64,000 nucleotides of DNA, from contig CAYFSW010000091.1 in NCBI GenBank assembly GCA_964345885.1, forward strand, positions 25,485-89,484, written 5' to 3'. The position numbers and the translations under genes were made by a program. The notes beneath the pieces are model-generated. The model searched no databases and was not told where the DNA came from. It was given only the letters and a program-made list of their open reading frames with translations. The stretch comes from an uncultured Gemmatimonadota bacterium. Lineage in GTDB: Bacteria > Gemmatimonadota > Gemmatimonadetes > Palauibacterales > KS3-K002. Of this stretch, positions 7,688 to 32,276 are shown piece by piece (the first letter of the stretch is position 1; the number at the start of each line of letters is the position of its first letter).

Positions 7688-9047
7688 GCTCGCCTCCTCG
7701 TTCATCACCACGGGCTCGCAGCCAGATGTAGTACACGGGGAACCCCACCAGGACAAGCGCCAGGCCGAATGCACTTTCGCCGGGCTCCGAGACCAGCTGG
7801 TTCCCGACGATGACCGCGGTCGAGAGCACGAAGACGGCCGGGATCACCGGAAACCCCCAGATCGTATAGCGCGGCGAGTACTCCGGGCGCCGACGCAACA
7901 GAAAGAGCCCCGCGGCCATCAGGCCGAAGAAGATCCATTCGGTGTAGACCACGCGCGTAAAGAGCGCCTGGTAGGTCCCCGTCACCACGAGGACGGATGA
8001 CCACACGGCCTGCGCGACTATCGCACGGTGCGGCGTCCGGAAGCGCGGGTGCACCTCCCCCAGCCAACGGAAGAGTAGCCCGTCGCTCGCCATCGCGTAG
8101 TAGACGCGCGGTCCGGCGAGCACGATCCCGCTCAGCGCGCCGAAGGTCGAGAAGATCACCAGCGCCGACATCACAGAGCCTCCACCCCGTCCCAGCACCG
8201 CATCGGCCGCGTCGGCTGCCACCCGCGACGACGAGATCACCCTCTCCAGCGGCAGGATGTACAGATAGACCGCGTTGAGGGCGATGTAGCACGCCGTAAC
8301 GACCAGCGTGCCGACGAGCAGAGCCCGGGGGATCGTGCGCTCCGGCTCAACGGTCTCGTCACCCGCGTAGGTCACCATGTGCCAACCGCCGAAGGCGAAC
8401 AGGCCGGCGATCAGCGCCAGAACGAACCCGCGCAGGCCGCCGGCACCACTGACGCTCACGCCGGCAGCCGATTCGGGTGCCGAGTTCCCTACTCCCACGG
8501 CGAGCTGGTCCGGCACCCGCGAGCCGAGGAGGAGCCCGGCAATCACGATCCCGACGATCGCTGCGACCTTTCCGATGGTGAACGCCGTCTGCAGTGCGCT
8601 TCCCTGGCGCACGCCGATGTAGTTGACGGCGGAAAGCACCAGGATGCAGCCGATCGCCACGAGCTGTACGCCCAGATCGCCGAGCGGCGCGAAGTAGCCG
8701 ACGTAACGTGCGAACACCACCGCGATCGCGGCCAGGATCCCGCTGTGCATGCTCCAGAACATCGCCCAGCCCCAGAGGAACCCGACGGCGGGTGAGAACT
8801 CCTCGCCGAGAAAGACATAGACGCCACCGGTGCGCGGGTAGACCGAGGAGAGCTCGGCGCAGACGAGCGCCCCGAACAGCGTGAGGGTGCCCGCGATCGC
8901 CCAGACGGCGAAGACACCAGGAATCGATGGGACCTGACCGGTGATCAGCGATGGTTGGACGAAGATCGAAGCGCCGATGATGGTGCCCACCACCATCGCC
9001 GTCGCGCGCACGATCCCGATCGAGCGCTCGAGCTGCGGCCTCACCAT
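7674..9047 (-). CDS. APC-superfamily amino-acid permease
   Basis: 12 predicted TM helices; IVRATAMVVGTIIGASIFVQP...FAVWAIAGTLTLFGALVCAELSSVYPRTGG is the APC consensus region. Confidence 0.85.
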   Translation of the reverse strand: MVRPQLERSIGIVRATAMVVGTIIGASIFVQPSLITGQVPSIPGVFAVWAIAGTLTLFGALVCAELSSVYPRTGGVYVFLGEEFSPAVGFLWGWAMFWSMHSGILAAIAVVFARYVGYFAPLGDLGVQLVAIGCILVLSAVNYIGVRQGSALQTAFTIGKVAAIVGIVIAGLLLGSRVPDQLAVGVGNSAPESAAGVSVSGAGGLRGFVLALIAGLFAFGGWHMVTYAGDETVEPERTIPRALLVGTLVVTACYIALNAVYLYILPLERVISSSRVAADAADAVLGRGGGSVMSALVIFSTFGALSGIVLAGPRVYYAMASDGLLFRWLGEVHPRFRTPHRAIVAQAVWSSVLVVTGTYQALFTRVVYTEWIFFGLMAAGLFLLRRRPEYSPRYTIWGFPVIPAVFVLSTAVIVGNQLVSEPGESAFGLALVLVGFPVYYIWLRARGDERGGEHASR

Positions 9048-9078
9048 CGCCGCCTCCTCGATGGCCGCGTCAAGCTTA

Positions 9079-10788
9079 TCAGGATTGGAGCTGTGGGCGT
9101 CTCAGGTGGAAGTCGGTCGCCTCTTGATACGCACGCGCTACCGCCAGCGCCTCCGACTCGCCGTAGAGGCTGCCGATGAAGCTGATGCTCGTCGGCGTGC
9201 CATCTTCCCGGAACCCGTTCGGCAAAACAACACACGGGTGTCCGGTGAGATTGGTCAGCGTGAGGTTGTTGCCGCCATAGGACGGGGTGACGTAGACGTC
9301 CACCTGCGACATGACCTCTGCCATTTCTTCCAGCAGCAGCGTGCGCGTTCGGTTGGCCTGGATGTACTCGACGGCGGGGATGAACCGTGCCTGGCGAAAC
9401 GAGTTGGGCCAGGCGCCCCTGTCCTGACGTTTCAGCAGATCGTCGCGCCCGCTTCGTGTCAGATCGTCGAAGGCCGCCGCCGCCTCGGCGCTGAGAACTG
9501 TGCGCATCGCGCTTACCGGCAGATCCGGCAGCTCGATCGGGATCAGCTCGATCCCTAAGGAACCCAGGGTCTCCAGTACCGCCTCGTCGAACGCCTTCCA
9601 CTCCGGCTGGCGCTCGCGCTCCTCCTCGAAAGCGCTCTTCAGATAACCGACCCGCAGATTCCTTACATCGAGCTCGGCGTCCCAGACGAATGGCAGGTCC
9701 ACGACCGTAAGATCCTTCCCGTCGGGACCGTAGATCGCCTCGAACACCAGCGCACAGTCCTCGACGCTGCGACAGATCGGACCGACCTTGTCCATACTCC
9801 AGGAGAGCGCCATCGCACCGTAGCGGCTCACGCGTCCGAAAGTGGGCCGCAAACCGGTCGTACCGCAGCGCGTGCACGGCGAGACGATCGACCCCAGGGT
9901 CTCGGTGCCGATGCCGAAGCCCACGAGCCCCGCCGCCGTCGCCGCCGCCGGGCCGGCCGACGAGCCGCTCGAACCTTCCTCGTAGTCCCAGGGGTTGCGC
10001 GTCCTGCCACCATACCAGACGTCGCCCATCGCCAGCGCCCCCAGCGTCAGCTTCGCCACCAGCACGGCGCCCGCCTCCTCAAGCCGCGCGGCCACCGTCG
10101 CGTCCTCATCGATCACCTGGTCCTTGTACGGCTCGGCGCCCCACGTCGTCCTGTACTCGGGTGTCGCCAAGAGATCCTTCGCACCCCACGGGATACCGTG
10201 CAGCGGACCGCGGTAGGTGCCGCCGGCGATCTCAGCGTCGGCTTGACGGGCCTGCTCGAGGGCGAGCTCCTCGGTGAGCGTGACTATGCACTCGAGCTTG
10301 GGCCCGTACTTCTTCAGTCGCTCGAGGTACATCGTGGTGAGTTGTACCGACGACAGACGCCGCGTCTCGATGAGCTTCGCCAGGTGCGTCACCGGCCAGA
10401 ACGCGACTTCCTCCAAGTCCGACGGCACCCGATCGATCCGTACCTCGCTGCGGCGCGAGACCCCCGGCTCGCGGGTCACGGTGCGGCCCGGCGGCACAGG
10501 TTCGAAGTAGAGCGCCGGCGGCACTTTGTTGACCAGCTCGAGGCTGCGGATCACTTCATAGCCGTCCAACCGGCGGTTGAGCCCCTGCACCATCAACTCG
10601 CGCTCTTCGTCGGTGAACTCGAGGCCGGCGACCACCTCGCAGTCGGCGATCATCTCCTTGGTGATCCTGAGCTCCTCCTCATCCTGTAGCAACTTCCAGA
10701 GCGCGCCAGGAAGCAGCGTGGACGAAAGACCGATACCCGAGAAGTAGGCGAGGAAACGACGGCGGCTGAACTCGGTTGCGGTTGACAT
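9079..10788 (-). CDS. Amidase-signature family amidase with a TAT signal peptide
   Basis: The N-terminus SRRRFLAYFSGIGLSS is a twin-arginine signal. The GSSGSSAG...GTETLGSIVSP amidase-signature region is present. Confidence 0.85.
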   Translation of the reverse strand: MSTATEFSRRRFLAYFSGIGLSSTLLPGALWKLLQDEEELRITKEMIADCEVVAGLEFTDEERELMVQGLNRRLDGYEVIRSLELVNKVPPALYFEPVPPGRTVTREPGVSRRSEVRIDRVPSDLEEVAFWPVTHLAKLIETRRLSSVQLTTMYLERLKKYGPKLECIVTLTEELALEQARQADAEIAGGTYRGPLHGIPWGAKDLLATPEYRTTWGAEPYKDQVIDEDATVAARLEEAGAVLVAKLTLGALAMGDVWYGGRTRNPWDYEEGSSGSSAGPAAATAAGLVGFGIGTETLGSIVSPCTRCGTTGLRPTFGRVSRYGAMALSWSMDKVGPICRSVEDCALVFEAIYGPDGKDLTVVDLPFVWDAELDVRNLRVGYLKSAFEEERERQPEWKAFDEAVLETLGSLGIELIPIELPDLPVSAMRTVLSAEAAAAFDDLTRSGRDDLLKRQDRGAWPNSFRQARFIPAVEYIQANRTRTLLLEEMAEVMSQVDVYVTPSYGGNNLTLTNLTGHPCVVLPNGFREDGTPTSISFIGSLYGESEALAVARAYQEATDFHLRRPQLQS

Positions 10789-10826: not shown

Positions 10827-11813
10827 TCAAAAGACATCCAGGTCGTTCCCATACACGACTGCTCCATCATAGACCTGGCGTATTTCATCGACCAGCTCCG
10901 CCGGCGTCGAGCCCCAGAGTAGCTGATGATAGAGGACGAGCAAACCCGGCTGTGCCTGCGCCGCGATGCGGCCCAGTTCCAGCGACGAGGTGTGGGAGTT
11001 GGCATGGTAGAGCTGCCAAACCGGTTCCCGGCGCTCGAACCCCGCCTGCGAGTACACCTCGTGAACCAGCACGTCGCAGCCGCGACAGTTCTCGGCGATC
11101 GCCGGACTGGGGCCGGTATCACCCGACACGACGATCGTCCGGTCGGGCGTCTCGAAGCGATAGCCGAACGACTGTGACCACGCCCCATGCTCGACCAGGA
11201 AGGCGGTGACCCGCACGTTTTCATCCTCGTATACGAGACCGGGCTCGATCTCGTGCACGTTCACCCTGTAGCCATCCGGGTTGGCGGGCTCGAGGCCGTC
11301 GAGGCGAACCCGTATGTCCGCCTCGTAAGCGGCCAGCAGGTGATCGGTCATCGCCCGCAGGCCGGCCGGTCCGAACACCTCCGCCGGGACGTCGCGCTCC
11401 AGCACCCACGGCGTGAAGATGAAATCGCCGTAGCCCAGGGTGTGATCACTGTGCAGATGCGTGATGAAGGCGAACCTGAGCTTTGGCACCTCCAGCCCGG
11501 CGATGCCCGTCTGATAGGCCGCTTTCGCGCGCCGCACCACCCCCGGGCCCAGATCGACCAGGTACGGCGTGCCGGCCACAACGATTGCCACCGCCGAGCC
11601 CGAACGCTCCGGCTCGGCGTTCGGCGTGCCGGTGCCCAGCAGAACCACCCGTGTGCGCCCCGAATCAGCGGGCGCCGCCGCAGAACCCTCCGCGTTGTCG
11701 GCCGAACTCGGGCGGCAGGCCGCTGCACTCGCCAGTACCACGACGAGCGAGTAACGAAGCGCACTAAGGGCTCTGTTCACATGTACGACTCCGCTGCAAC
11801 GGGAATTCGGCAA
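10827..11813 (-). CDS. Secreted or lipoprotein MBL-fold metallo-hydrolase
   Basis: ITHLHSDHTLGY (HxHxDH) and downstream His/Asp ligands are present. The N-terminus has a signal/lipobox-like segment (LVVVLASAAAC). The true start may instead be the internal GTG (VNRALSAL...). Confidence 0.75.
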   Translation of the reverse strand: MPNSRCSGVVHVNRALSALRYSLVVVLASAAACRPSSADNAEGSAAAPADSGRTRVVLLGTGTPNAEPERSGSAVAIVVAGTPYLVDLGPGVVRRAKAAYQTGIAGLEVPKLRFAFITHLHSDHTLGYGDFIFTPWVLERDVPAEVFGPAGLRAMTDHLLAAYEADIRVRLDGLEPANPDGYRVNVHEIEPGLVYEDENVRVTAFLVEHGAWSQSFGYRFETPDRTIVVSGDTGPSPAIAENCRGCDVLVHEVYSQAGFERREPVWQLYHANSHTSSLELGRIAAQAQPGLLVLYHQLLWGSTPAELVDEIRQVYDGAVVYGNDLDVF

Positions 11814-11879
11814 TCCATGATTAATTGACAGTCATGAATTGCCGAATTCCCTCTGTTCCTCCCATTCCCACTACGATAT

Positions 11880-13451
11880 CTACCGCGAGCGGTATTCTTC
11901 CCAGCTCCGCATCGGAGCCCGACACTCGGGCCAGGTCATCTGCTCTCCGGTCCGCTGGCTCACCGGCAGCACGCGCCGGTCCCGCGGCATCAACTCCTCC
12001 TCCTCGGATGCGAGGTAGGCGAGCATGGCGAACAGCGTCGCGTTGTTCTTGAGATCATCGATCACGATCTTGTCAAACGTGTCGCGGTTCGTATGCCACG
12101 TGTAGGGGAAATACGCCCAGTTGTGCGCCCCCAAGAAGAAGGCGGGCGCCCCCGTGCAGAGGAACGACGCGTGATCGCTACCACCACCACTCGGCGTCCC
12201 CGGTAACGTGAGGTCGATGTGTCGTGAGATCTCTGTCGGAATCATCGACAGCCAACGCCCGAAGTACTCGCCGGCCCGCGTCAGGCCCGCCCCGGTGGCC
12301 CGCACGATCCGCCCGGTCCCGTTGTCCTGATTCAGCACCACCTGCAGCCCCTCGATCACTTCGGGATGGTCGGCCACGAAGGCTCGCGACCCGATGAGCC
12401 CCTGCTCCTCGGCGCCCCACAGTCCGGCAATGATCGTCCGTTTCGGATTGGGATAGACAGCCTTGAGGATCCGCATCGCCTCCAGCATCGTGACGCTGCC
12501 CGTCCCGTTGTCGGTGGCGCCCGAGCCGCCGTCCCACGAGTCGTAGTGGGCCGAGAACACAACGTACTCGTCGGGCTTCTCCGTACCGCGAATCTCCGCG
12601 ATCGTGTTGAATATCGGCTCCTCGCCGTGGAAGCGCGCTTCCGCCTCGACCTCGAGCACCGGCCCCTGGTCGTGCTCGGCGAGTCGGAAGAGCAGACCGT
12701 AGTCCTCACAGCTCAACGCCAGCGCCGGCACCCGCTCGGTGATGGCGCTGAACACCCGCTGCACGCCCCAACCGCCGGGCCAACTGGACGTCAGGATCCC
12801 TCGGACACCCGCCTCTTCGAGAACGCTGGTAATCTGACGCTGGTCGTAACCGGTCTGCTCGATTCGATCCCGCCACTCGCGGCGCGCCGTGTCGCGCTCG
12901 GCCTGCATACGCTCGAACGACTCCTCGGTGGCGTACTCCTCCCAGTTGTCGTTGGGTCGACAGGTTGGCTCGCCGTAACTGATGAGAACAAACTTGTTTC
13001 GCGCCTCGGGCAGCCACGACTGGAAAGCGGCGGAGTCCGGCACGTCCGGGAACATCACAACCTCGCCCCTGACCGTCCCGCGCGTACCGGCGCTCCAGGC
13101 CAGCAGCATCCCTTCCAGGCTGCGGACCCGGGGCTCCACCAGATCGATGTGTGTGATGCCGCGCTCCCAGTTCATCCAGGTGCCGTACTGTTCGTTGCGG
13201 GCCTCGATGCCCCAGCCGCTGAACATCTGCACCGCCCAATCGTTTGCCGCCTTGTGGGCGGGCGACCCGCTCAGCCGCGGACCGATAGAGTCGAGCAGCG
13301 CCTGCGCCAGACTATAGGCCTGCGAGTTCTCCATCCCTTCCTCCCAGATGCGCTGGATGACCGGGTCGTCAACCGGGAAGGTCTGGGCCGCTGCCACTGA
13401 AGCTGTCGTCAAGAACGCAGCCACGAGCGTGAGACCGATCTTTATTCGCAT
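11880..13451 (-). CDS. Secreted M28-family aminopeptidase
   Basis: Signal peptide MRIKIGLTLVAAFLTTASVAAAQ. HYDSWDGGSGATDNGTGSVTMLE is the M28 Zn-ligand/catalytic region. Confidence 0.85.
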   Translation of the reverse strand: MRIKIGLTLVAAFLTTASVAAAQTFPVDDPVIQRIWEEGMENSQAYSLAQALLDSIGPRLSGSPAHKAANDWAVQMFSGWGIEARNEQYGTWMNWERGITHIDLVEPRVRSLEGMLLAWSAGTRGTVRGEVVMFPDVPDSAAFQSWLPEARNKFVLISYGEPTCRPNDNWEEYATEESFERMQAERDTARREWRDRIEQTGYDQRQITSVLEEAGVRGILTSSWPGGWGVQRVFSAITERVPALALSCEDYGLLFRLAEHDQGPVLEVEAEARFHGEEPIFNTIAEIRGTEKPDEYVVFSAHYDSWDGGSGATDNGTGSVTMLEAMRILKAVYPNPKRTIIAGLWGAEEQGLIGSRAFVADHPEVIEGLQVVLNQDNGTGRIVRATGAGLTRAGEYFGRWLSMIPTEISRHIDLTLPGTPSGGGSDHASFLCTGAPAFFLGAHNWAYFPYTWHTNRDTFDKIVIDDLKNNATLFAMLAYLASEEEELMPRDRRVLPVSQRTGEQMTWPECRAPMRSWEEYRSR

Positions 13452-14194: not shown

Positions 14195-14226
14195 GGACGT
14201 TCCATTGCAGAACTGGGAAGTCTTTT

Positions 14227-14364
14227 GGGAATGCTCGAATGTCGAGCAAGGGACCAGTGCAACAGTGGAGGTAGGGAGGTACAGAAGTGGCCGCGCGGCG
14301 CTTCACCTCCGGCTTCCCCACCTCCCTGTTCCACTGGTCCCCGAATCGACATTCGAGAATTCCC
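14227..14364. repeat. Long imperfect inverted repeat (arms ~45-55 nt, ~40-nt GGAGG/CCTCC-rich centre); candidate structured RNA or MITE-like element
   Basis: 14227-14280 (gggaatgctcgaatgtcgagcaagggaccagtgcaacagtggaggtagggaggt) is near-complementary to 14320-14364 (acctccctgttccactggtccccgaatcgacattcgagaattccc). Confidence 0.6.
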
Positions 14365-14390
14365 GAACGACTTCGCATGTTGATAACAAA

Positions 14391-14702: not shown

Positions 14703-15266
14703 CTAAGATTTCTTCTTCTTCGAAGTAGTCTTGGCTTTGGCCTTGGTCGTCGTCTTCGCCTTCGACGTCGACTTGGCCTTAGCCGTGGTCTTCTTCTTCG
14801 CCGTGGTCTTGGCCTTCGCCTTGGGAGCCGCCTTCTTCTTGGCCGGCGCCTTCTTCGGCTTGGCTGCTGCCGCCTTCGCCACCGGTTTCTTGGCCGCCTT
14901 CTTCTTGGGAGCAGCCTTCTTTACTTTCTCCAGGCTCACCCGCCGATCGCCACCGAAGTCGATCTCGCTCACCCGCACCTCGGTATAGTCCTGGCGGTGG
15001 CCCGTCTTGCTCCGGATGTTCTTGCGGCGCTTGAACTTGAAGACCACGACCTTGTCGGCCCGACCGTGGCCCAGAACCTCGGCGCGCACCGCCGCGCCCT
15101 TCAGCGTCGGCCGCCCAATCAGCACGTCGCCCTCCGTGGCACCGAGCAGCACCTCGTCGAAGGTGACGGTATCGCCGGACTCGACGTCGAGCGACGGCAG
15201 CCGCAGCACGTCGCCGAGCGCGGCACGGTACTGGAAGCCTGCGGCCTTGAAAATGGCGTATGTCAC
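14703..15266 (-). CDS. rplU: 50S ribosomal protein L21 with a ~75-aa Lys/Ala/Thr-rich C-terminal extension
   Basis: The [24 protein letters not shown]...[21 protein letters not shown]21 core is followed by [30 protein letters not shown]..., a histone-H1-like tail. Confidence 0.9.
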
Positions 15267-24543: not shown

Positions 24544-26339
24544 TGGAAATGGACCAGTCAACAGGGAAAAGAACGGTGACGCGGATAGGAGTGGCCGTCC
24601 TGGCCATCGCCATCATCTTCGCCGGCGCGCCCGAGCTGCGCGCTCAGCAGGGCGGTGGCTCGGACCCGGAGCACAGGCTCCCCCTCACCTGGGATCGCTG
24701 GCTCGATCACGCAGAGATCGGTGAACGGATGAGGCTCATGGCCGATACCTGGCCCGACTTCCTGACGCTCACTTCGCTGGGCAAGAGCTACGGCGGCCGA
24801 GACCTCTGGATGATGACCATCAACAATCCCCGCACCGGGGCCGAGCGAACCAAGGCCGCCATGTTCGTCGAGGCCAACGTTCACGGGAACGAGATCCAGG
24901 GCGGCGAGGTCTGCCTCTACACGATCTGGTACCTGATGGAGAACTACGGCCGAATCGACGAGATCACGCGCCTGGTCGATGAGCGGGTCTTCTACATCGT
25001 ACCGACCGTTAACCCCGACGGCCGCGACTACTTCATGCACGAGACGGGCTCCGGGTCGCGGACCGGGCACGTGCCCGTCGACAGCGACGGGGACGGCCTC
25101 TTTGACGAGGATGGGCCCGACGATCTGAACGGGAACGGGATGATCGAGCAGATCCGCAAGTACGTTCCCGGTGAAGGTACCCACCGCATCAGTCACGACG
25201 ATCCGCGGATCATGGAGACCGTCCCGTCGGGCGAGATGGGAGACTGGATCCTGCTGGGGTCCGAGGGGATCGACAACGACGGCGACGGGCGCGTCAACGA
25301 GGACCCGGTCGGCGGTTACGACCCGAACCGGAATTACGGCGCCGACTGGCAGCCCAACTACATCCAGCGCGGCTCGATGAACTACCCGTTCGAGCTGCCG
25401 GAATCGCGAGCGACGAACGACTTCTGGATGAGCCACCCCAACATCGCCGGGTTCCAATCGTATCACAACTCGGGCGGGATGATCCTCCGCGGACCCGGCA
25501 CGGCCTGGCACGGCACGTACCCCCGAGAGGACATCCGCGTCTACGACGAGCTGGGCGAGACCGGCGAGCGGATCCTGCCGTACTACGACTACCTGATCAT
25601 CTGGCAGGGGCTCTATACGGTGCACGGCGGATCCATCGACTGGACTAGCGACGGGCTCGGCGTCGTCTCCTTCTCCAACGAGCTGTGGAGCGGGGGCCAG
25701 TACTTCGGCAGCCCGCTGCTACGCGAGCAGCAGCAGGGCCCCGACTCACCGATCTCTGGTCAGAAATCGCGCTTCTTCTTCGACGACTTCGTCGAGCTAG
25801 GCGACAACTACGTCGAGTGGGCACCCTTCGACCACCCAGAGTACGGGGAGGTCGAGTTGGGCGGCTGGAAAAAGTATTTTGCGAGGATAAACCCGCGCTT
25901 CATGAGCATGGAGCTCTTCCACCGCAACATGGCCTTCACTCTATTCCACGCCGATCAGATGCCGCTCATGTCCATCGGGGAAGCCACCGTAGAGAACGTG
26001 GGCGGGAACGTCTTCAGGGTGCGGGTCGACATCAGGAACGAGCGGCTCATCCCGACGATCACCGTGCGGGCGCGGCAGAACAACGTCGTGCGCCCCGATC
26101 TCCTCACTGTCGACGGTAACGTCGAGGTTATCGCCGCCGGCTGGGTGCCCAACAAGTTCCGGCCCGGCCCCACCGACAGAATCGATCAGGAAGAACTCGA
26201 CCGCATCATCATCCGCAGCGGCCACCCCGGCCGCACGACCCGGACCATCGAGTACCTGGTCCGCGGCTCCGGGACGATGACGGTCACGTATTCGGCGGTG
26301 AAGGGCGGCACGGTTTCCACCACCGTGCGGCTCCGCTGA
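24544..26339 (+). CDS. Secreted M14-family zinc carboxypeptidase (paralogue 2)
   Basis: Starts 1 nt after the previous stop, with signal peptide VAVLAIAIIFAGAPELRAQQ. NVHGNEIQGGEVCLYTIWYLMENYG is the M14 HxxE Zn motif. Its architecture parallels paralogue 1 (both end ...TVTLR / TVRLR). Confidence 0.8.
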
Positions 26340-26361
26340 TGGTCCGGCGGCACCTCAGCAG

Positions 26362-26763
26362 CTAGGAAGGGACGACTCGGAAGCCCTGGTCCTCGAAATC
26401 CTCATCGAGGGCCAGGGCTTCCTCTAGACCCTCCGCCTCCATCAGGACGAAGCTGACGCAATCCACAACGCTCAGCCGCCGGCGGTCGGTGCTGAACAGC
26501 CGCTCCAGAGCACGTCGGTGTAACCCCTCATCTACCCAGTGTACGGTCAAGAGAGGAACGACTCGCTCCCCGAAATCTCGAACCGCGGTGAGCCCAAATC
26601 GACTCTGTAGCAGCGTGCTCGTCTCGACCAAAACATAGTTTGTGGTTACCAGGCGCCGGTTCGCCTGCAACAGACCGCTGAACGCCTCAGCTACCTTCTC
26701 GTGATCCGCCTCGCTCCTAACAAGAATCGCGTAGAGTGCCGAAGTGTCGACGAAGACGCTCAT
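26362..26763 (-). CDS. vapC: PIN-domain toxin VapC
   Basis: MSVFVDTSALYAIL...TTNYVLVET...DCVSFVLMEAEGL carries the PIN acidic residues (D6, E, D, D). Confidence 0.85.
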   Translation of the reverse strand: MSVFVDTSALYAILVRSEADHEKVAEAFSGLLQANRRLVTTNYVLVETSTLLQSRFGLTAVRDFGERVVPLLTVHWVDEGLHRRALERLFSTDRRRLSVVDCVSFVLMEAEGLEEALALDEDFEDQGFRVVPS

Positions 26764-27023
26764 CCCCCGTACGCCTCCGGCAGATGCTCGTCATGGTCCT
26801 TTGCGACCCGCGATGGACCTGCCGGGTCGGAGTACTTCCCCACCACCGCCAACGCCTCGCGCACCAGCCCTTCCCGGCCAAGATCCAGACGTTCCCCAGC
26901 CAACCGCTCCGCGACACAGCGGCGAACCGCCTCCGACATCGAGATCCCGATGCGGTTGGCCCACGCCTTCAGGCGCCGGTGCATGTCCTCGGGCAGCTGG
27001 ATCTGAGTACGTACCATCTTCAT
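26760..27023 (-). CDS. vapB: Ribbon-helix-helix (CopG/VapB-type) antitoxin
   Basis: MKMVRTQIQLPEDMHRRLKAWANRIGISMSEAVRRCV is an RHH fold signature. It overlaps vapC by 4 nt. Confidence 0.75.
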   Translation of the reverse strand: MKMVRTQIQLPEDMHRRLKAWANRIGISMSEAVRRCVAERLAGERLDLGREGLVREALAVVGKYSDPAGPSRVAKDHDEHLPEAYGG

Positions 27024-27054
27024 GCCACCATTCTATGATATCATAATGTGATAA

Positions 27055-28791
27055 TCAAGCTGTCATCCCAGGGTCTGGCCCCGGCACACAGCGATCACAC
27101 CCTGCACACCGCCGGCGCGGCGAGTCCTCTCCGAAGTAGCGTAGCAGGTAGCGACGCCGGCACCCGCCTTGGTACGCATAGATCTCCATCCGCTTCAGCT
27201 TCCGCATCTCCAGCGCCCGCCGTGCGGCGACCTGCTCCCAGTCAACGGGCAACGCATCGGGTTCCAGCTTCAAGTCGGAGGGCACGTAGCCCGACCTGAG
27301 CCCCTCGTCGCGCCAGCCGAGGAGGCCGGCACCCTGAAGGGCATCGAGCGCCTGGCGTGCGGTGCCGAAGTCGCCGCCGGTCCAGCGGGCGATCTCGCGG
27401 CGCGAGATACGCAGGTGGCGGCGCTCGGCCTGGGCCGAGATCCGGGCCAGGCCCTCCAGCACGGGCAGCACAGCTATGTGCTCTTCCGAGCCGTTCTCGC
27501 ATTCGAGCAACTGGCGCACCTGTGCGGGGCTGGCGATCCATCTGACCGTACAGCTGGAGCGGTTCGCCGTGTCTTCGACGGCATGTGCATCACGGAGGAT
27601 GCGAAGCGCCGAGTAGATCTCGGCCTCGCTCTTGGCGTCCTTGACGCGAGCGGCGAACTGGGCGGGTGTGACGGGACCGCCGGCGGCGCACACGGCGTCG
27701 CGGAGCGCGCGGAAGGTCGCACGCACGACTTCGCGCGGCGGATACGAGGAGCGGATGAAGAACTCGTGGGTGAAGCGATCGCGATAACTGTGCAGCAGGG
27801 TGCACTCGGCGGGCCCGCCGTCGCGACCGGCGCGGCCCGCCTCCTGGTAGTAGGCCTCGAGCGATCCCGGCATCTGGAAGTGGACCACGCGCCGCACGTC
27901 TTCCTTGTCGATCCCCATGCCAAAGGCGTTGGTGGCGACGACCACCGGCAGGTTCCCGACCGTCCACTCTTCTTGAACTCGCGCCCGGCGCTCGCGCGGA
28001 AGGCCGGCGTGGTAGGCGGCGGCATCGATCCCTGCACCTCTAAGCAGTTCGGTCGCCGCCTCAACCACCTTGCGGGTCGACGCGTAGACCACCGCGGTCT
28101 CGTCACCGTTCCCAAGAGTCGAGACCAGCAGTCGAGCCTTCTCGCTGAGCTTCTCTTCCCGGCGCACGTTCCAGCGCAGGTTCGGGCGGTCGAAGCCGCG
28201 AACGATGACGCGGGACTCGCGGAGACCCAGCTGCTCGACGATGTCTTTCCGCACCTCGGGCGTCGCCGTCGCGGTGAGCGCTAAGAGGCGCGGCCGGCCG
28301 ATCTCCTGCCAGACATCCCGCAGCATTAGGTAGCTGGGCCGGAAGTCGTGTCCCCACTGGGAGACGCAATGCGCCTCGTCGACGGCGACCAGCCCGATCG
28401 TCATGGCGCCTAGCGCGCGCCGGAAGACGGGGCTGCCGAAGCGCTCCGGCGCCACGTAAAGCAGGTCGAGCTCACCCGCCGTCGCCCGGTCCAGCCGCTC
28501 GTCGATCTCGCCGCTCGACAGCGTGCTGTTGATGAGGGCGGCCCGGATCCCACGGCGCTCCAGGGCGCCCACCTGATCGAGCATCAAGGCGATGAGCGGC
28601 GAGACGACCAGGGTGAGACCGGGAAGGACGAGTGCAGGGATCTGAAAGCAGAGCGACTTGCCGCCGCCGGTGGGCATGACGATCAGCGTGTCGCGACCCC
28701 GCAGTATTGAGAGGATCGCCTCACGCTGACCGGGCCGGAAGTCGCCGTACCCGAAGTGCCGCTGGAGAGCGGACCGCGCCTCTGACCACAC
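27055..28791 (-). CDS. recQ: RecQ-family ATP-dependent DNA helicase (short form without HRDC)
   Basis: FGYGDFRPGQREAI...MPTGGGKSLCFQIPAL (motifs 0/I), DEAHCVSQWGHDFR (DEAH), ...YHAGL..., and a C-terminal Zn motif CRRRYLLRYFGE...CAGCDRC. GTG start. Confidence 0.9.
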   Translation of the reverse strand: MWSEARSALQRHFGYGDFRPGQREAILSILRGRDTLIVMPTGGGKSLCFQIPALVLPGLTLVVSPLIALMLDQVGALERRGIRAALINSTLSSGEIDERLDRATAGELDLLYVAPERFGSPVFRRALGAMTIGLVAVDEAHCVSQWGHDFRPSYLMLRDVWQEIGRPRLLALTATATPEVRKDIVEQLGLRESRVIVRGFDRPNLRWNVRREEKLSEKARLLVSTLGNGDETAVVYASTRKVVEAATELLRGAGIDAAAYHAGLPRERRARVQEEWTVGNLPVVVATNAFGMGIDKEDVRRVVHFQMPGSLEAYYQEAGRAGRDGGPAECTLLHSYRDRFTHEFFIRSSYPPREVVRATFRALRDAVCAAGGPVTPAQFAARVKDAKSEAEIYSALRILRDAHAVEDTANRSSCTVRWIASPAQVRQLLECENGSEEHIAVLPVLEGLARISAQAERRHLRISRREIARWTGGDFGTARQALDALQGAGLLGWRDEGLRSGYVPSDLKLEPDALPVDWEQVAARRALEMRKLKRMEIYAYQGGCRRRYLLRYFGEDSPRRRCAGCDRCVPGPDPGMTA

Positions 28792-28857
28792 GCCGCAGGA
28801 TCGCAGAGGCGCATCAACAAAGCCTCAACAGCAAGACTCGCTTTTGAGCGAGGCGAG

Positions 28858-29199
28858 CTAGGCGGGAGCTTTCTCCAGAGGTTGTATGCGGTTCAGCTGT
28901 TCCGCTTTCTTGGAGTGCATCGCCTCGTAAAGGTCACACTCCATCTGTCCGGTCAGCCAGAATTCAGGCGAAGTGCCGAAGAGCCTGCTCAAACGGAGCG
29001 CCGTATCCGGAGTAACCCTCCGCCGACCCTTGATGATCTCGTTCACTCTAGGATAGGGCACGCCGATGAGCTCAGCGAGCTTGGTCTGGGTCAAGCCGAG
29101 CGGCAGCAGAAAATCCTCCAGCAGAATCTCGCCCGGATGCGTCGGTGGCCTGCTGGTTGGAACACGAGCCTTGAACATGATTTCTTCTTTTTTCAACAC
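28858..29199 (-). CDS. higA: HigA-family HTH (XRE) antitoxin
   Basis: HPGEILLEDFLLPLGLTQTKLAELIGVPYPRVNEIIKGRRRVTPDTALRLSRLFGTSPEFWLTGQ matches the HigA/VapI antidote family. Confidence 0.85.
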   Translation of the reverse strand: MLKKEEIMFKARVPTSRPPTHPGEILLEDFLLPLGLTQTKLAELIGVPYPRVNEIIKGRRRVTPDTALRLSRLFGTSPEFWLTGQMECDLYEAMHSKKAEQLNRIQPLEKAPA

Positions 29200-29205
29200 C
29201 TGGTG

Positions 29206-29397
29206 CTAGTCGGTGATCTCTACATCCGTCGGGCCGTCGACGGTCCACTCGAAGCAGATCCGATATTGATCATTTATGCGGATACTGTGCTGTCCAGACC
29301 GATCGCCCCTCAGCTTCTGCAGCCTGTTTCCCTGCGGAACCCTCAGGTCCTTCAGGAACCTCGCCCGGTTGAGGTGATCCAACTTACGCTGAGCCAC
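29206..29397 (-). CDS. higB: HigB/RelE-family toxin. Called from the first canonical start (GTG); a conserved N-terminal segment extends in frame to ~29496 without any ATG/GTG/TTG.
   Basis: ...LRVPQGNRLQKLRGDRSGQHSIRINDQYRICFEW...VEITD matches the HigB (PF05015) core. The upstream in-frame sequence VIRSFADPATSDI... matches the HigB N-terminal 'MIRSF' motif but lacks a start codon. Confidence 0.7.
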   Translation of the reverse strand: MAQRKLDHLNRARFLKDLRVPQGNRLQKLRGDRSGQHSIRINDQYRICFEWTVDGPTDVEITD

Positions 29398-29589
29398 CGG
29401 CCAGACTTGCAGAGGACACTTCCTGCGTGCCCTTTGGGTTGGGTGCCCGTTGCAGATATCGCTCGTGGCCGGATCAGCGAACGAGCGGATGACGTTGTAC
29501 TATTATACGGTATAACGATATAACCCTCAACCAACACCATCCCACCACCCGGAGGTGGACGACGCCGCGCAATCCGGGCGTCACCCTCA

Positions 29590-29710
29590 CGATCACCGTC
29601 TCGCGGCCCACAGAATCGAGAGGATCGGCTCACGCTGGCCGGGGCGGAACTTGCCGTACCCGAAGTACCTCCGGAGAGCGGAACGCGCCCCTGAGCACAC
29701 CGGCCAAGGT
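29590..29710 (-). pseudogene. Diverged duplicate of the recQ start region (RBS, GTG and ~35 codons), a pseudogene fragment
   Basis: ~80% nucleotide identity to 28681-28800. It translates to VCSGARSALRRYFGYGKFRPGQREPILSILWAARR*, compared with RecQ MWSEARSALQRHFGYGDFRPGQREAILSILRGRD. Confidence 0.6.
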
Positions 29711-29739
29711 TGGCCCGTGTGATCAACCGATTATCAAGA

Positions 29740-29781
29740 GGCCGGTGTACGGTATGCGGTATGCAGTATGCCGTGTGCGGT
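29740..29781. repeat. Heptad-phased CGGT tandem repeats (ggcCGGTgtaCGGTatgCGGTatgcagtatgccgtgtgCGGT)
   Basis: A direct 7-nt periodicity is visible in the sequence. Related arrays occur at 35733-35760 and 50148-50184. Confidence 0.5.
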
Positions 29782-29873
29782 TAGAAGTCAGAACGGCAGG
29801 CCCGAGCGGCGGCAAGTCACCGTAGTGCGCGCGCCGCCTCGCTCCCGAGACAGTCCTGGGGCGCGCGTAGGCT

Positions 29874-32102
29874 TTATCGCGCGTGTATCACTACGCTGCC
29901 GCCGCCGATCTCCTGGTCGAAGCCGTTGTCGTACACGTCGGCCTCGACGCCGGTGGTCTCGACTTCCTCCCAAATCCTGATCCGGAAGGTGTCGGCGTCT
30001 TTGTCACCAGCCCAGATCATGAACTTGTAGTCGCCGGTGCCGTTAATCATGCCCGACCCCTTTAACAGCGCGTAGTCGCTGCCGGTAACGATCAGCCACT
30101 CGTAGTCGATGCTGTGCAGGTTGAGGCCGGCCAGGTGGAACTGGAACTCCGCCTGGCCGGTGGGCACCTCCGCGCCCTTCTTGTACTTGGCGACGAAGCC
30201 GAAGTTGGCCCTGCCCGCCAGCGACGGGTCGGGCTCGTAAGCTCCCGCCGGCGAGTCGATCCAGCCGCCGCCGGTGACGAAGCCGGCGGTCGGGTCGTAG
30301 ACGACGACGTACGCGAAGACGGGCGAGAAGCCCGAGTCGCCATCGTTGTCGGTCACCGCCAGCCGGATCTCGTACAGCCCCGCCTCGTCATAGGTGTGGC
30401 TGTCGGTCACCGAGCCGGAGCCCGCCCCCTGCGTCACGGTTCCTGCCTCGCCGATTCCGGCGGGCCAATCCCAAACCCACTCGGCCGTGTGGGTGTCCAG
30501 CGTGCCAGGATCGGTGAAACCGGCTGATGCGATGATCGGCGTGCCCACCGAGACCAGGCTTAGCGGCGCAGCGATCGTGCCCACCGTCGGGGCGACGTTG
30601 TTAATGGTCGCGGTCGCGGTGGCCGAGCTCGACTGGCCGTCGTCGTCGGTCACCGTCAGCGTGACCGTGTACACCCCGTCGTCCAAGTAGGCGTGTTCCG
30701 GAGTCGAGCCGCTGCCCGTGGCGCCGTCGCCGAAATCCCAATCGAAACTCACGATGCTGCCGTCAGGATCGGCTGACCCGCCTCCATCGAACATCACGCG
30801 CGCGCCCTCGTCCCCCACATAGGGGCCGCCAGCGTCGGCGACCGGAGGCGCAGTGGCGGGGCCCGGAGGCACGACTAACCCGCTCAGCACGACCTCCGCC
30901 GTGAGCAGGAACGAGTGGTAGCAGCAGTCGTCCACGTGAGTGATGAGGACGGTGTTCACCTCGCCGCTGACCACATAATCCTTCAGGTCGGCGGTACCGC
31001 TACCGCCCCGGTACACGAAGCTGCCGGGCACGACGAGTCCGTCGGGATACTGCGAGTTGTAGATCGACACGCGTATGCCGTCGTCTATTCCCGAAGTGCT
31101 GATCCTGAAATCGGCGAGCCACGCATCAGGCGGAATGTCGACGTACGTGCGGAAGTAAGTGAAGTCGCCCCCGTATCGGCAGTTACATACACCACACAGA
31201 GTGGATGGGATCTGCTGGTAGTTGATGACTTCGGGATCGGGCGCAGCGCCCCAACCGGGATCGTCAGGTGATGGAATTGTCGCGTACGTATACTCTATCG
31301 GATCCCCGTGTTGTGCCGTCTCGAACCCCCATTCGACGACCCCTTCGCCGTGGTGCATCTCCCACGGCGTCCGGGTGGGGGGCGGGCCCGCCGGCGGGAT
31401 GAAGGCGACGTCGTCCATCACCCACCAACAGCCATACGGAAAGGAACAACTTCTTCGCAGAACTACACTATCGACAGGGCTATCGAAGTCGGCCGGCACC
31501 CACTGCATGGTCGGCGTCAACGTGATGTGAGCTGACTCGCCGACCTTCGTCGTCCCGTGGTATCCCTCGAACCAGAACTCCACAACGTAGTTGTACATCG
31601 GCGCTGGCTTGCCCACCCACGCACCGGAAAAGGTCACAGGCTGTTGGACGGTTATGTGCTCAGCGTCACGCCCACCGGCGTTGAACAGGAACACCTGACC
31701 AGAATGAGGCTGCCCGTACGAGCCGTTGTTCCAGTGGTAGACACCGGAAGTACCCTGCGGACCCGCCGAGAAGGTGACCCCCAGGTACGGGTTGTGCTCA
31801 GCCATCGTGTGGAAACCACTGCCCGAATCGTTAAGGTCCTCGAAATCGAGGACTCTCGCGCCAGTCGGGACCAAACTGACACTGGCCGCCGCTGTACTCT
31901 CTTCTTGCCTTGGTGACAGGGACTGCGCCGCCAGCTCCTCTGGAGTCATGCCAGTCAGCTCGAAAAAGCTGCCCCCGGAGGTCTCGGAAAAAGCCACTCC
32001 GGTCGGCGGGCCGGTCAGTTCGCCCGACTCGTCACGACAACCTGTCGCCAGCAGAAGACCCGTCAGGCCGACCAACAGCGTACGTGTAGGCGTCTTCTTC
32101 AC
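29874..32102 (-). CDS. PKD-domain-containing secreted lipoprotein
   Basis: A GTG start gives MKKTPTRTLLVGLTGLLLATGC (lipobox). Two PKD-like modules (FDWDFGDGATGSGSTPEHAYLDDGVYTVTLTVTDDDG; ...SHTYDEAGLYEIRLAVTDNDG). Confidence 0.75.
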   Translation of the reverse strand: MKKTPTRTLLVGLTGLLLATGCRDESGELTGPPTGVAFSETSGGSFFELTGMTPEELAAQSLSPRQEESTAAASVSLVPTGARVLDFEDLNDSGSGFHTMAEHNPYLGVTFSAGPQGTSGVYHWNNGSYGQPHSGQVFLFNAGGRDAEHITVQQPVTFSGAWVGKPAPMYNYVVEFWFEGYHGTTKVGESAHITLTPTMQWVPADFDSPVDSVVLRRSCSFPYGCWWVMDDVAFIPPAGPPPTRTPWEMHHGEGVVEWGFETAQHGDPIEYTYATIPSPDDPGWGAAPDPEVINYQQIPSTLCGVCNCRYGGDFTYFRTYVDIPPDAWLADFRISTSGIDDGIRVSIYNSQYPDGLVVPGSFVYRGGSGTADLKDYVVSGEVNTVLITHVDDCCYHSFLLTAEVVLSGLVVPPGPATAPPVADAGGPYVGDEGARVMFDGGGSADPDGSIVSFDWDFGDGATGSGSTPEHAYLDDGVYTVTLTVTDDDGQSSSATATATINNVAPTVGTIAAPLSLVSVGTPIIASAGFTDPGTLDTHTAEWVWDWPAGIGEAGTVTQGAGSGSVTDSHTYDEAGLYEIRLAVTDNDGDSGFSPVFAYVVVYDPTAGFVTGGGWIDSPAGAYEPDPSLAGRANFGFVAKYKKGAEVPTGQAEFQFHLAGLNLHSIDYEWLIVTGSDYALLKGSGMINGTGDYKFMIWAGDKDADTFRIRIWEEVETTGVEADVYDNGFDQEIGGGSVVIHAR

Positions 32103-32276
32103 CTCGCTCCCCTTTCCGCGTCGTGAGCACAGAACCTGGACACCCGCTTCCTGCCTGCACGCGACCGCCGATGGTGCCAGGCTGCTCGCCAACCTAGGGA
32201 CCGTTCTCTCGTGAGAATCGCTAGACTTCAGGGCGGGAGACTACTGGAGCCTGGAGGGAGGATCCGGCCGCACCAG

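Follow-up and report, generated by a model that had tools for sequence, protein, structure and literature searches.

The stretch analysed here, referred to as the window, comprises 64,000 nt of contig CAYFSW010000091.1 (assembly GCA_964345885.1, positions 25,485 to 89,484) from an uncultured Gemmatimonadota bacterium. On its minus strand, an intact recQ-family helicase gene is preceded by a higBA toxin-antitoxin (TA) pair and followed by a second TA pair, and a truncated copy of the recQ 5' end, here called the stub, lies on the far side of higBA. The first-pass annotation of this DNA gave the gene order as recQ 5' fragment, higB, higA, recQ and TA pair, all on the minus strand, and both the open reading frame (ORF) layout and the domain matches bear this out (Table 1). 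The questions addressed are what the stub represents and how higBA came to lie between it and recQ.

The repeated recQ 5' end and the higBA pair

When the window is compared with itself by blastn, the strongest dispersed repeat in its 64 kb is the one formed by the stub (29589-29700) and the beginning of recQ (28679-28791), with 84.1% identity over 113 nt and an E value of 2.5e-27. A repeat search delimits an ungapped core of 94 nt at 85% (28698-28791 and 29607-29700, spacing 909). The stretch of high similarity runs from precisely the GTG start codon to approximately codon 37-38. The stub has a 1-nt deletion and its frame is lost after codon 30; its translation is 80% identical to RecQ residues 1-30 (E 3.7e-10). 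The similarity noted at first pass, given as about 80% over about 115 nt and said to include the ribosome-binding site as well as the GTG, survives proper alignment in its coding part but not in the part that covers the ribosome-binding site and 5' untranslated region (5'UTR). There, 25 of 45 positions match, and a TTGA-N8-TTGAT skeleton alone is held in common. The sequence TGATCGT is present in both copies at the inner border of the repeat, and is inseparable from the repeat itself.

The repeat is not an assembly artefact, because the same structure is found in an independent Logan assembly (locus L001) and recurs in another lineage, on the JGI metagenome contigs L082 and L169. In a scan of 160 other recQ-family loci, no second copy of the RecQ N-terminus was detected, only the window and L001 having one; locus L070 in that scan contains two full recQ paralogues and not a 5' duplicate.

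The pair between the two copies shows the toxin-first order of HigBA systems, with higB upstream of higA on the same strand and a 27-nt gap between them. HigB matches PF05015 (E 2.9e-13 in the window and 7.7e-16 in L082), and HigA scores 100 bits against a cutoff of 47.7 for the equivalog model TIGR02607, with an additional match to PF01381. The candidate promoter agrees with the sigma-70 consensus at 10 of 12 positions, and 2 such sites were observed versus 0.2 expected in shuffled sequences. A 33-nt element comprising this promoter and its palindrome is 91% conserved in the higBA cassettes L165-L167, which lie in unrelated genomic contexts. The cassette thus appears to carry its own promoter and operator, which would travel with it.

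In the window genome, the toxin itself seems to be dead. The start position of higB reads GTC, where L082 and L169 have GTG, and the penultimate Tyr codon, TAC, has become a TAG stop, with loss of the conserved C-terminal Tyr-His. The HigB C-terminus is DYH-stop in L082, L169, L170 and four more distant homologues, and DYP-stop in a fifth, L168; the higB ORF is intact in L082/L169, as is its C-terminus in L170. What remains in the window is, judging by this start loss and premature stop, a HigBA-derived locus with an inactive toxin. The antitoxin gene, by contrast, is intact and under strong constraint: HigA is 97% identical at the amino acid level to P0001, the L082 version, and the genes differ at 11 of 321 nt (2/2/7 by codon position). 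Third-position divergence between the window and L082 is far lower in higA (7/107) than in recQ (56/232, over the first 696 nt), which hints at a later exchange of higA and the recQ 5' end among lineages, or at unusual constraint.

Table 1. Features of the recQ locus, listed in minus-strand gene order
Feature	Position	Strand	Remarks
PKD-domain protein gene	29874-32192	minus	first in minus-strand gene order
Putative old native-type recQ promoter/5'UTR region (B_up), now 5' of the dead stub	29701-29745	minus	contiguous with PKD gene, as in empty-site relatives
recQ 5' stub (copy B), putative pseudogene of recQ codons 1-37	29589-29700	minus	84% identity to 28679-28791
58-nt spacer between stub and higBA promoter; left junction of insert	29531-29588	minus	no similarity to recQ past codon ~38
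Predicted higBA promoter TTGAGG-17-TATAAT with palindrome TTATAC-C-GTATAA at 29503-29515	29502-29530	minus
higB, HigB/RelE-like toxin, apparently disabled in the window genome	29206-29493	minus	PF05015
higA, helix-turn-helix (HTH)/Xre antitoxin, intact	28858-29178	minus	TIGR02607
Terminator-like hairpin directly after higA stop	28837-28852	minus	weakly conserved in L169 and L170
Region 5' of live recQ (A_up), at the right end of the inserted block; its recQ-type promoter/5'UTR belongs to a different sequence type	28792-28836	minus
Intact recQ-family helicase gene, with copy A of the repeat at 28679-28791	27055-28791	minus	DEAD, Helicase_C, RecQ_Zn_bind
Ribbon-helix-helix (RHH, CopG-like) antitoxin of downstream TA pair	26760-27023	minus	PF01402
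PIN-domain toxin (VapC-like) of downstream TA pair	26362-26763	minus	PF01850

Filled and empty sites among relatives

The first-pass proposal that the repeat brackets an inserted or captured higBA is upheld by the surviving similarity and by empty sites in two syntenic relatives. In L003 (chromosome CP070812.1) and L086 (a 173-kb metagenome contig), each encoding a RecQ 90% identical to that of the window, recQ directly follows the PKD gene; higBA is absent and the recQ 5' end occurs once. The whole layout of PKD gene end, stub, higB, higA and recQ is present in L082/L169 (approximately 90% nucleotide identity). In L170 (GCA_975959135.1, approximately 87%), the higB C-terminus is followed by higA, the A_up region, recQ, and the RHH and PIN genes; its contig begins inside higB, 5' of which the stub would sit. 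The 58-nt spacer is matched in L001, L082 and L169 alone among all loci compared. Since L082/L169 and L170 share the window layout, with the stub visible in L082/L169, the insertion would appear to be old and inherited.

The surroundings of recQ vary in other ways as well. At the same chromosomal position, recQ is found with no TA pair upstream, with mazEF, with a Gp49/Xre pair, and with vapBC with or without the PIN gene; four different TA pairs directly abut it in the species cluster, in varying combinations. In L003, mazEF (11711-12460) is located at the recQ stop codon, before the RHH-PIN pair, and no flanking duplication was found at this mazEF insert. An RHH gene after recQ also occurs in L003, L010, L086 and L170, and a PIN gene in L003, L010 and L170, with no match in L086. 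Across the other recQ-family loci (160 scanned in all), TA pairs do not abut recQ; the sole exceptions are weak HigA-like matches in L139 and L141 (34% and 51% identity). In the window, the recQ stop codon overlaps an AT-rich, promoter-like and partly palindromic stretch 5' of the RHH antitoxin gene (27024-27062, TTGATTATCACATTATGATATCATAGAAT), and the same stretch follows mazEF in L003.

A second stub, from the other end of the gene, occurs in L086. There, the region 3' of recQ (7711-8568) encodes a Gp49-like toxin and an Xre antitoxin and ends in a 97-nt copy of the recQ 3' end (8472-8568), beyond which lie mazEF (8690-9270) and an RHH gene. The stub resembles L003 and, as there, runs directly into mazEF; the live 3' end and the TA pair resemble those of L002, and the event is positioned 100 nt before the recQ stop codon. 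This second stub records an independent event with the same geometry as the scar in the window. The Gp49-like toxin is truncated by a 127-nt deletion in L086 and frameshifted in L002, with an intact antitoxin in both. The recurrence of insertion at both ends of recQ is the sole mildly unusual feature of the system.

L002 was considered as a donor-type arrangement for the L086 event, but was rejected as proof: L002 and L086 group as sisters with 100% bootstrap, and the place expected for a stub lies 145 nt beyond the end of the L002 contig. The RecQ of L002 is 92% identical to that of the window, and the gene has a different upstream neighbour there, a small lipoprotein-like gene. Because homology to the genomes with the PKD context begins just 67 nt 5' of the recQ start (L002:3362-3428), the L002 locus appears to have been rearranged or moved in that lineage.

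Decay of the stub and the route of entry

Between the window and L082, the stub has accumulated 10 substitutions distributed 3/3/4 over codon positions 1/2/3, and the live copy 7, distributed 0/1/6. The window and L082 stubs have a 1-nt deletion in common, and that of L082 has a further 2-nt deletion and 1-nt insertion of its own. Upstream of the stub, 8 of 35 nt differ between these two lineages, versus 1 of 34 upstream of the live recQ start. Because of the frameshifts, the even spread of substitutions and the drifting upstream region, the stub is best read as a pseudogene that has decayed neutrally since insertion, and there is no support for a peptide or regulatory role. The first-pass idea that the remnant supplies a promoter and ribosome-binding site for higBA is not supported: the frameshifts differ by lineage, the sequence upstream of the remnant drifts, and higBA has its own TTGAGG-17-TATAAT promoter, conserved in cassettes elsewhere.

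It was also suggested that recQ and the two TA pairs could behave as a stress- or defence-linked unit. The window RecQ passes the RecQ-family model TIGR00614 (404 bits, cutoff 219.8), but its 490 bits for the equivalog TIGR01389 are below the cutoff of 640 for E. coli-type RecQ orthologues, and no HRDC or RQC domain match was found in it. The zinc-binding Cys cluster occupies the extreme C-terminus (residues 522-568), after approximately 190 residues without a Pfam match. Relatives of full length are present in Ignavibacteriota and Bacteroidota and also in some archaea. PADLOC matches the protein to DpdF and PsyrT, with the best stretches at approximately residues 3-384, except for one DpdF model at 181-569. 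No Dpd or PsyrTA partner genes lie beside recQ, where the neighbours are the TA pairs, the PKD protein and M14 peptidases. A defence identity based on PADLOC was rejected, given that the matches cover essentially the generic helicase core and that partner genes are missing. With the TA complement varying among relatives and the window higB disabled, the idea of a stress or defence unit is not supported either.

A functional arrangement of either kind, in which the stub and its promoter are kept to drive or regulate higBA or to encode a short peptide, or in which higBA, recQ and vapBC form one stress or defence unit, is therefore very improbable. The genes are co-directional and tightly packed, the TTGA and TTGAT motifs of the old promoter are still there in two lineages, and the helicase core does resemble the PADLOC models. 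However, these points are outweighed by a stub that breaks differently in each lineage and changes without regard to codon position, by a portable higBA promoter beside a disabled toxin, and by a TA content that differs freely from one close relative to the next.

In the 45 nt 5' of recQ (28792-28836 and 29701-29745 in the window, and the corresponding regions of L002-L009 and L085-L087), a TTGA-N8-(G)TTGAT motif is located approximately 27 nt before the start codon in all recQ relatives. The sequence around it changes rapidly; the motif may be a promoter or a regulator site. The live upstream region, A_up, keeps TTGA-N8-TTGAT at the standard distance from the start codon, and 43-45 of its 45 positions are identical in three carrier lineages that are otherwise 9-13% diverged. 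The region 5' of the stub, B_up, matches the native type (the relatives' 45 nt upstream of recQ) at 31-40 of 45 positions; against L003, its L169 version scores 40/45 and its window version 34/45. A_up matches L003, L086 and L002 at 24-30/45, and the more distant L004 at 31-32/45. That the conserved copy is farther from the native type than the decaying one suggests that the insert brought the live upstream region with it. In the first 114 coding nt, the stub is equidistant from the window, L082, L086, L002 and L003 (16-19 differences), with 28-32 differences from L004 and L007. The live copy has 2-7 differences from L086, L002 and L082, as is typical of the local species cluster.

These comparisons bear on the possibility that the repeat arose in place, by tandem duplication of a native segment of approximately 155 nt running from the promoter to codon 37 (for example through slippage or staggered-break repair), accompanied or followed by a simple insertion of higBA between them; the live upstream region would then have changed fast and later been frozen by selection. 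It may be said for such a duplication that both coding copies fall in the local species cluster, that the stub distances fit a native copy on a long neutral branch, that both upstream regions keep TTGA-N8-TTGAT at the same distance from the start, and that upstream regions evolve fast in this group. However, it predicts the opposite of the observed relation of A_up and B_up to the native type, and it requires two events, or one unusual event, at the same spot. Nor does it suit the L086 case, in which an L002-type live end faces an L003-type stub. In-place duplication is thus considered unlikely.

The geometry of the insert points elsewhere. One of its borders lies in homologous DNA and the other is an abrupt non-homologous junction, at approximately codon 38 on the stub side, with 113-155 nt duplicated. 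No mobility genes were found between the copies, where higB and higA alone are identified and the block of 796-909 bp is too small for a transposase or integrase gene. Transposases typically make target duplications of a few bp. Transposition is an unlikely route of entry, because the 113-155 nt repeat far exceeds duplications of that size, no transposase is present and the site is not reused.

The block was probably put in place by recombination that used recQ as its homology anchor, either as a single crossover or as homology-facilitated illegitimate recombination (HFIR). At least three Gemmatimonadota lineages of uncultured soil bacteria would descend from an ancestor in which a block of approximately 0.8 kb was joined to recQ at about codon 38. 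The block would have consisted of the 58-nt spacer, a self-contained higBA with its promoter and operator, the hairpin, and a recQ-type promoter and 5'UTR of another sequence type. The stub and the 45 nt preceding it would then be the displaced, dead original 5' end of recQ, and the intact recQ would follow the block. On one route, a circularised fragment bearing a short recQ 5' segment and higBA would integrate by a single, Campbell-type crossover. On the other, a linear fragment would undergo HFIR, one end pairing in recQ and the other joining illegitimately at about codon 38. There is also a mirror-image version, in which the stub would be the truncated end of an imported fragment from the PKD side, through the same kind of event. 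A transposase or integrase would be needless for either route. In E. coli, single crossovers with circular molecules bearing a partial homologous segment gave target-locus duplications of 109-950 bp, and HFIR junctions in the same work had 3-10 bp of microhomology (PMC3240628).

Several observations weigh against recombination anchored in recQ. A donor arrangement, with higBA, an A_up-type promoter and recQ but no stub, was not found among the nearest higBA cassettes (74-78% HigA identity; L083, L084, L165-L168 and one more), none of which has a context related to recQ. In its coding part, the live copy looks like any other member of the local cluster, which is unlike the prediction for a diverged donor; one has to assume that the breakpoint fell at the start codon or that the copies were homogenised later. 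A foreign origin is suggested but not proven for A_up, given that this 45-nt region evolves fast and that the sister lineages L086 and L002 share only 34/45 in it. The recQ tree does not set the carrier lineages apart from L003 as a clade, leaving timing and polarity uncertain, and the data at hand do not discriminate between single crossover and HFIR.

In that tree, the window, L170 and L003 form a trichotomy at approximately 13% divergence, and sliding-window identity along recQ is mosaic, with no clean breakpoint. An attempt to polarise the two copies by phylogeny failed on this trichotomy and on the equal distance of the stub from all cluster members. The two copies now share no identical run longer than 14 nt, so that they look unlikely to recombine and release the insert.

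Related systems and other features of the window

As an insertion scar, the locus is well documented and belongs to a known, ordinary kind; it is not a working device or a new kind of system. A parallel in mechanism is provided by the E. coli single crossovers and HFIR events, which likewise have one homologous border and one non-homologous junction; duplications of 113-155 nt here and 97 nt in L086 compare with 109-950 bp there (PMC3240628). Those were laboratory events with known donors, whereas the event in the window would be ancient.

According to PMC13626634 (Hill et al. 1989 as cited there), e14 and phage 21 in E. coli icd also leave an intact gene beside the insert and a displaced, slightly different gene-end pseudogene (icdC), with the live end supplied by the incoming DNA. 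There, however, it is the 3' end that is affected, by a 15-kb prophage with its own integrase and site-specific excision; in the window the 5' end is affected and has gained a new promoter, the 0.8-kb insert contains higBA only, and no recombinase or recurrent site use was seen. An integrase-type island remnant can nevertheless be imagined, in which a site-specific element of the e14 or phage 21 type struck the recQ 5' end, bringing a replacement promoter and first 37 codons, and all of it was later deleted except higBA as a surviving addiction module. This geometry, in which the intact gene runs into the element and the displaced gene-end pseudogene lies on the far side, is that of e14 in icd (PMC13626634). 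Also in its favour, the copies were probably already different when joined, and both have TGATCGT at the inner border of the repeat. Such an origin is nonetheless quite improbable: between their two copies, neither the window/L001 nor L082/L169 has an integrase or any further gene of an element, the 5' duplicate was seen in 0/160 other recQ-family loci, and the L086 case, at another position and with another TA pair, is unlike the use of one site-specific target.

Orphan toxin 3' ends and immunity arrays of type VI secretion system (T6SS), Rhs and contact-dependent inhibition (CDI) loci offer a further parallel, in that a conserved gene anchors the repeated gain of toxin/immunity-type modules and displaced ends remain (PMC5361080). 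For the arrays at T6SS and Rhs loci, HFIR is the mechanism put forward to explain such ends (PMC5361080). The displaced pieces in those systems are the anchor's own variable toxin tips, gathered in arrays, whereas in the window the anchor is a housekeeping-type helicase, the cargo consists of unrelated type II TA pairs, and one stub is left per event. The ccdO157 system of E. coli is similar as a tiny TA islet without mobility genes that is present or absent at one site among relatives and is degenerating (PMC2654758); broken higB in the window and broken Gp49 in L002 and L086 parallel this decay. Unlike the recQ insert, whose junction falls inside a coding region and leaves a stub, ccdO157 is intergenic, and no flanking gene-end duplicate is mentioned in the review (PMC2654758).

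The movement of chromosomal TA pairs without visible mobility genes is still poorly documented, and this locus is a clean natural example with both filled and empty sites. The evidence points to host recombination anchored in a conserved neighbouring gene as a route of TA entry, and the usual aftermath, in which the toxin decays and the antitoxin persists, is illustrated as well. For annotation, short gene-end fragments beside TA pairs are best read as insertion scars and not as small genes or regulatory elements. More speculatively, small TA cassettes of type II may spread within these Gemmatimonadota free of recombinases by a kind of gene-end homing, each carrying a short arm from a conserved gene end (either end of recQ), integrating by host homologous recombination and leaving an intact gene and a dead stub, with recQ as a recurrent landing pad. 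This generalisation is improbable.

No known RNA family was matched by Rfam in 26000-30200 or in the window as a whole. Far from recQ, positions 14205-14385 hold an inverted repeat with 52-nt arms that are 83% complementary and 60 nt apart. All 181 nt fold as one long hairpin (-107.6 kcal/mol, z = -11 versus shuffles), with no Rfam match. The hairpin adjoins a minus-strand ORF (14703-15266) that consists largely of degenerate repeats with an 18-nt period, at approximately 14711-14924; the minus-strand reading (AAGAAGGC...) would give Lys/Ala-rich repeats.

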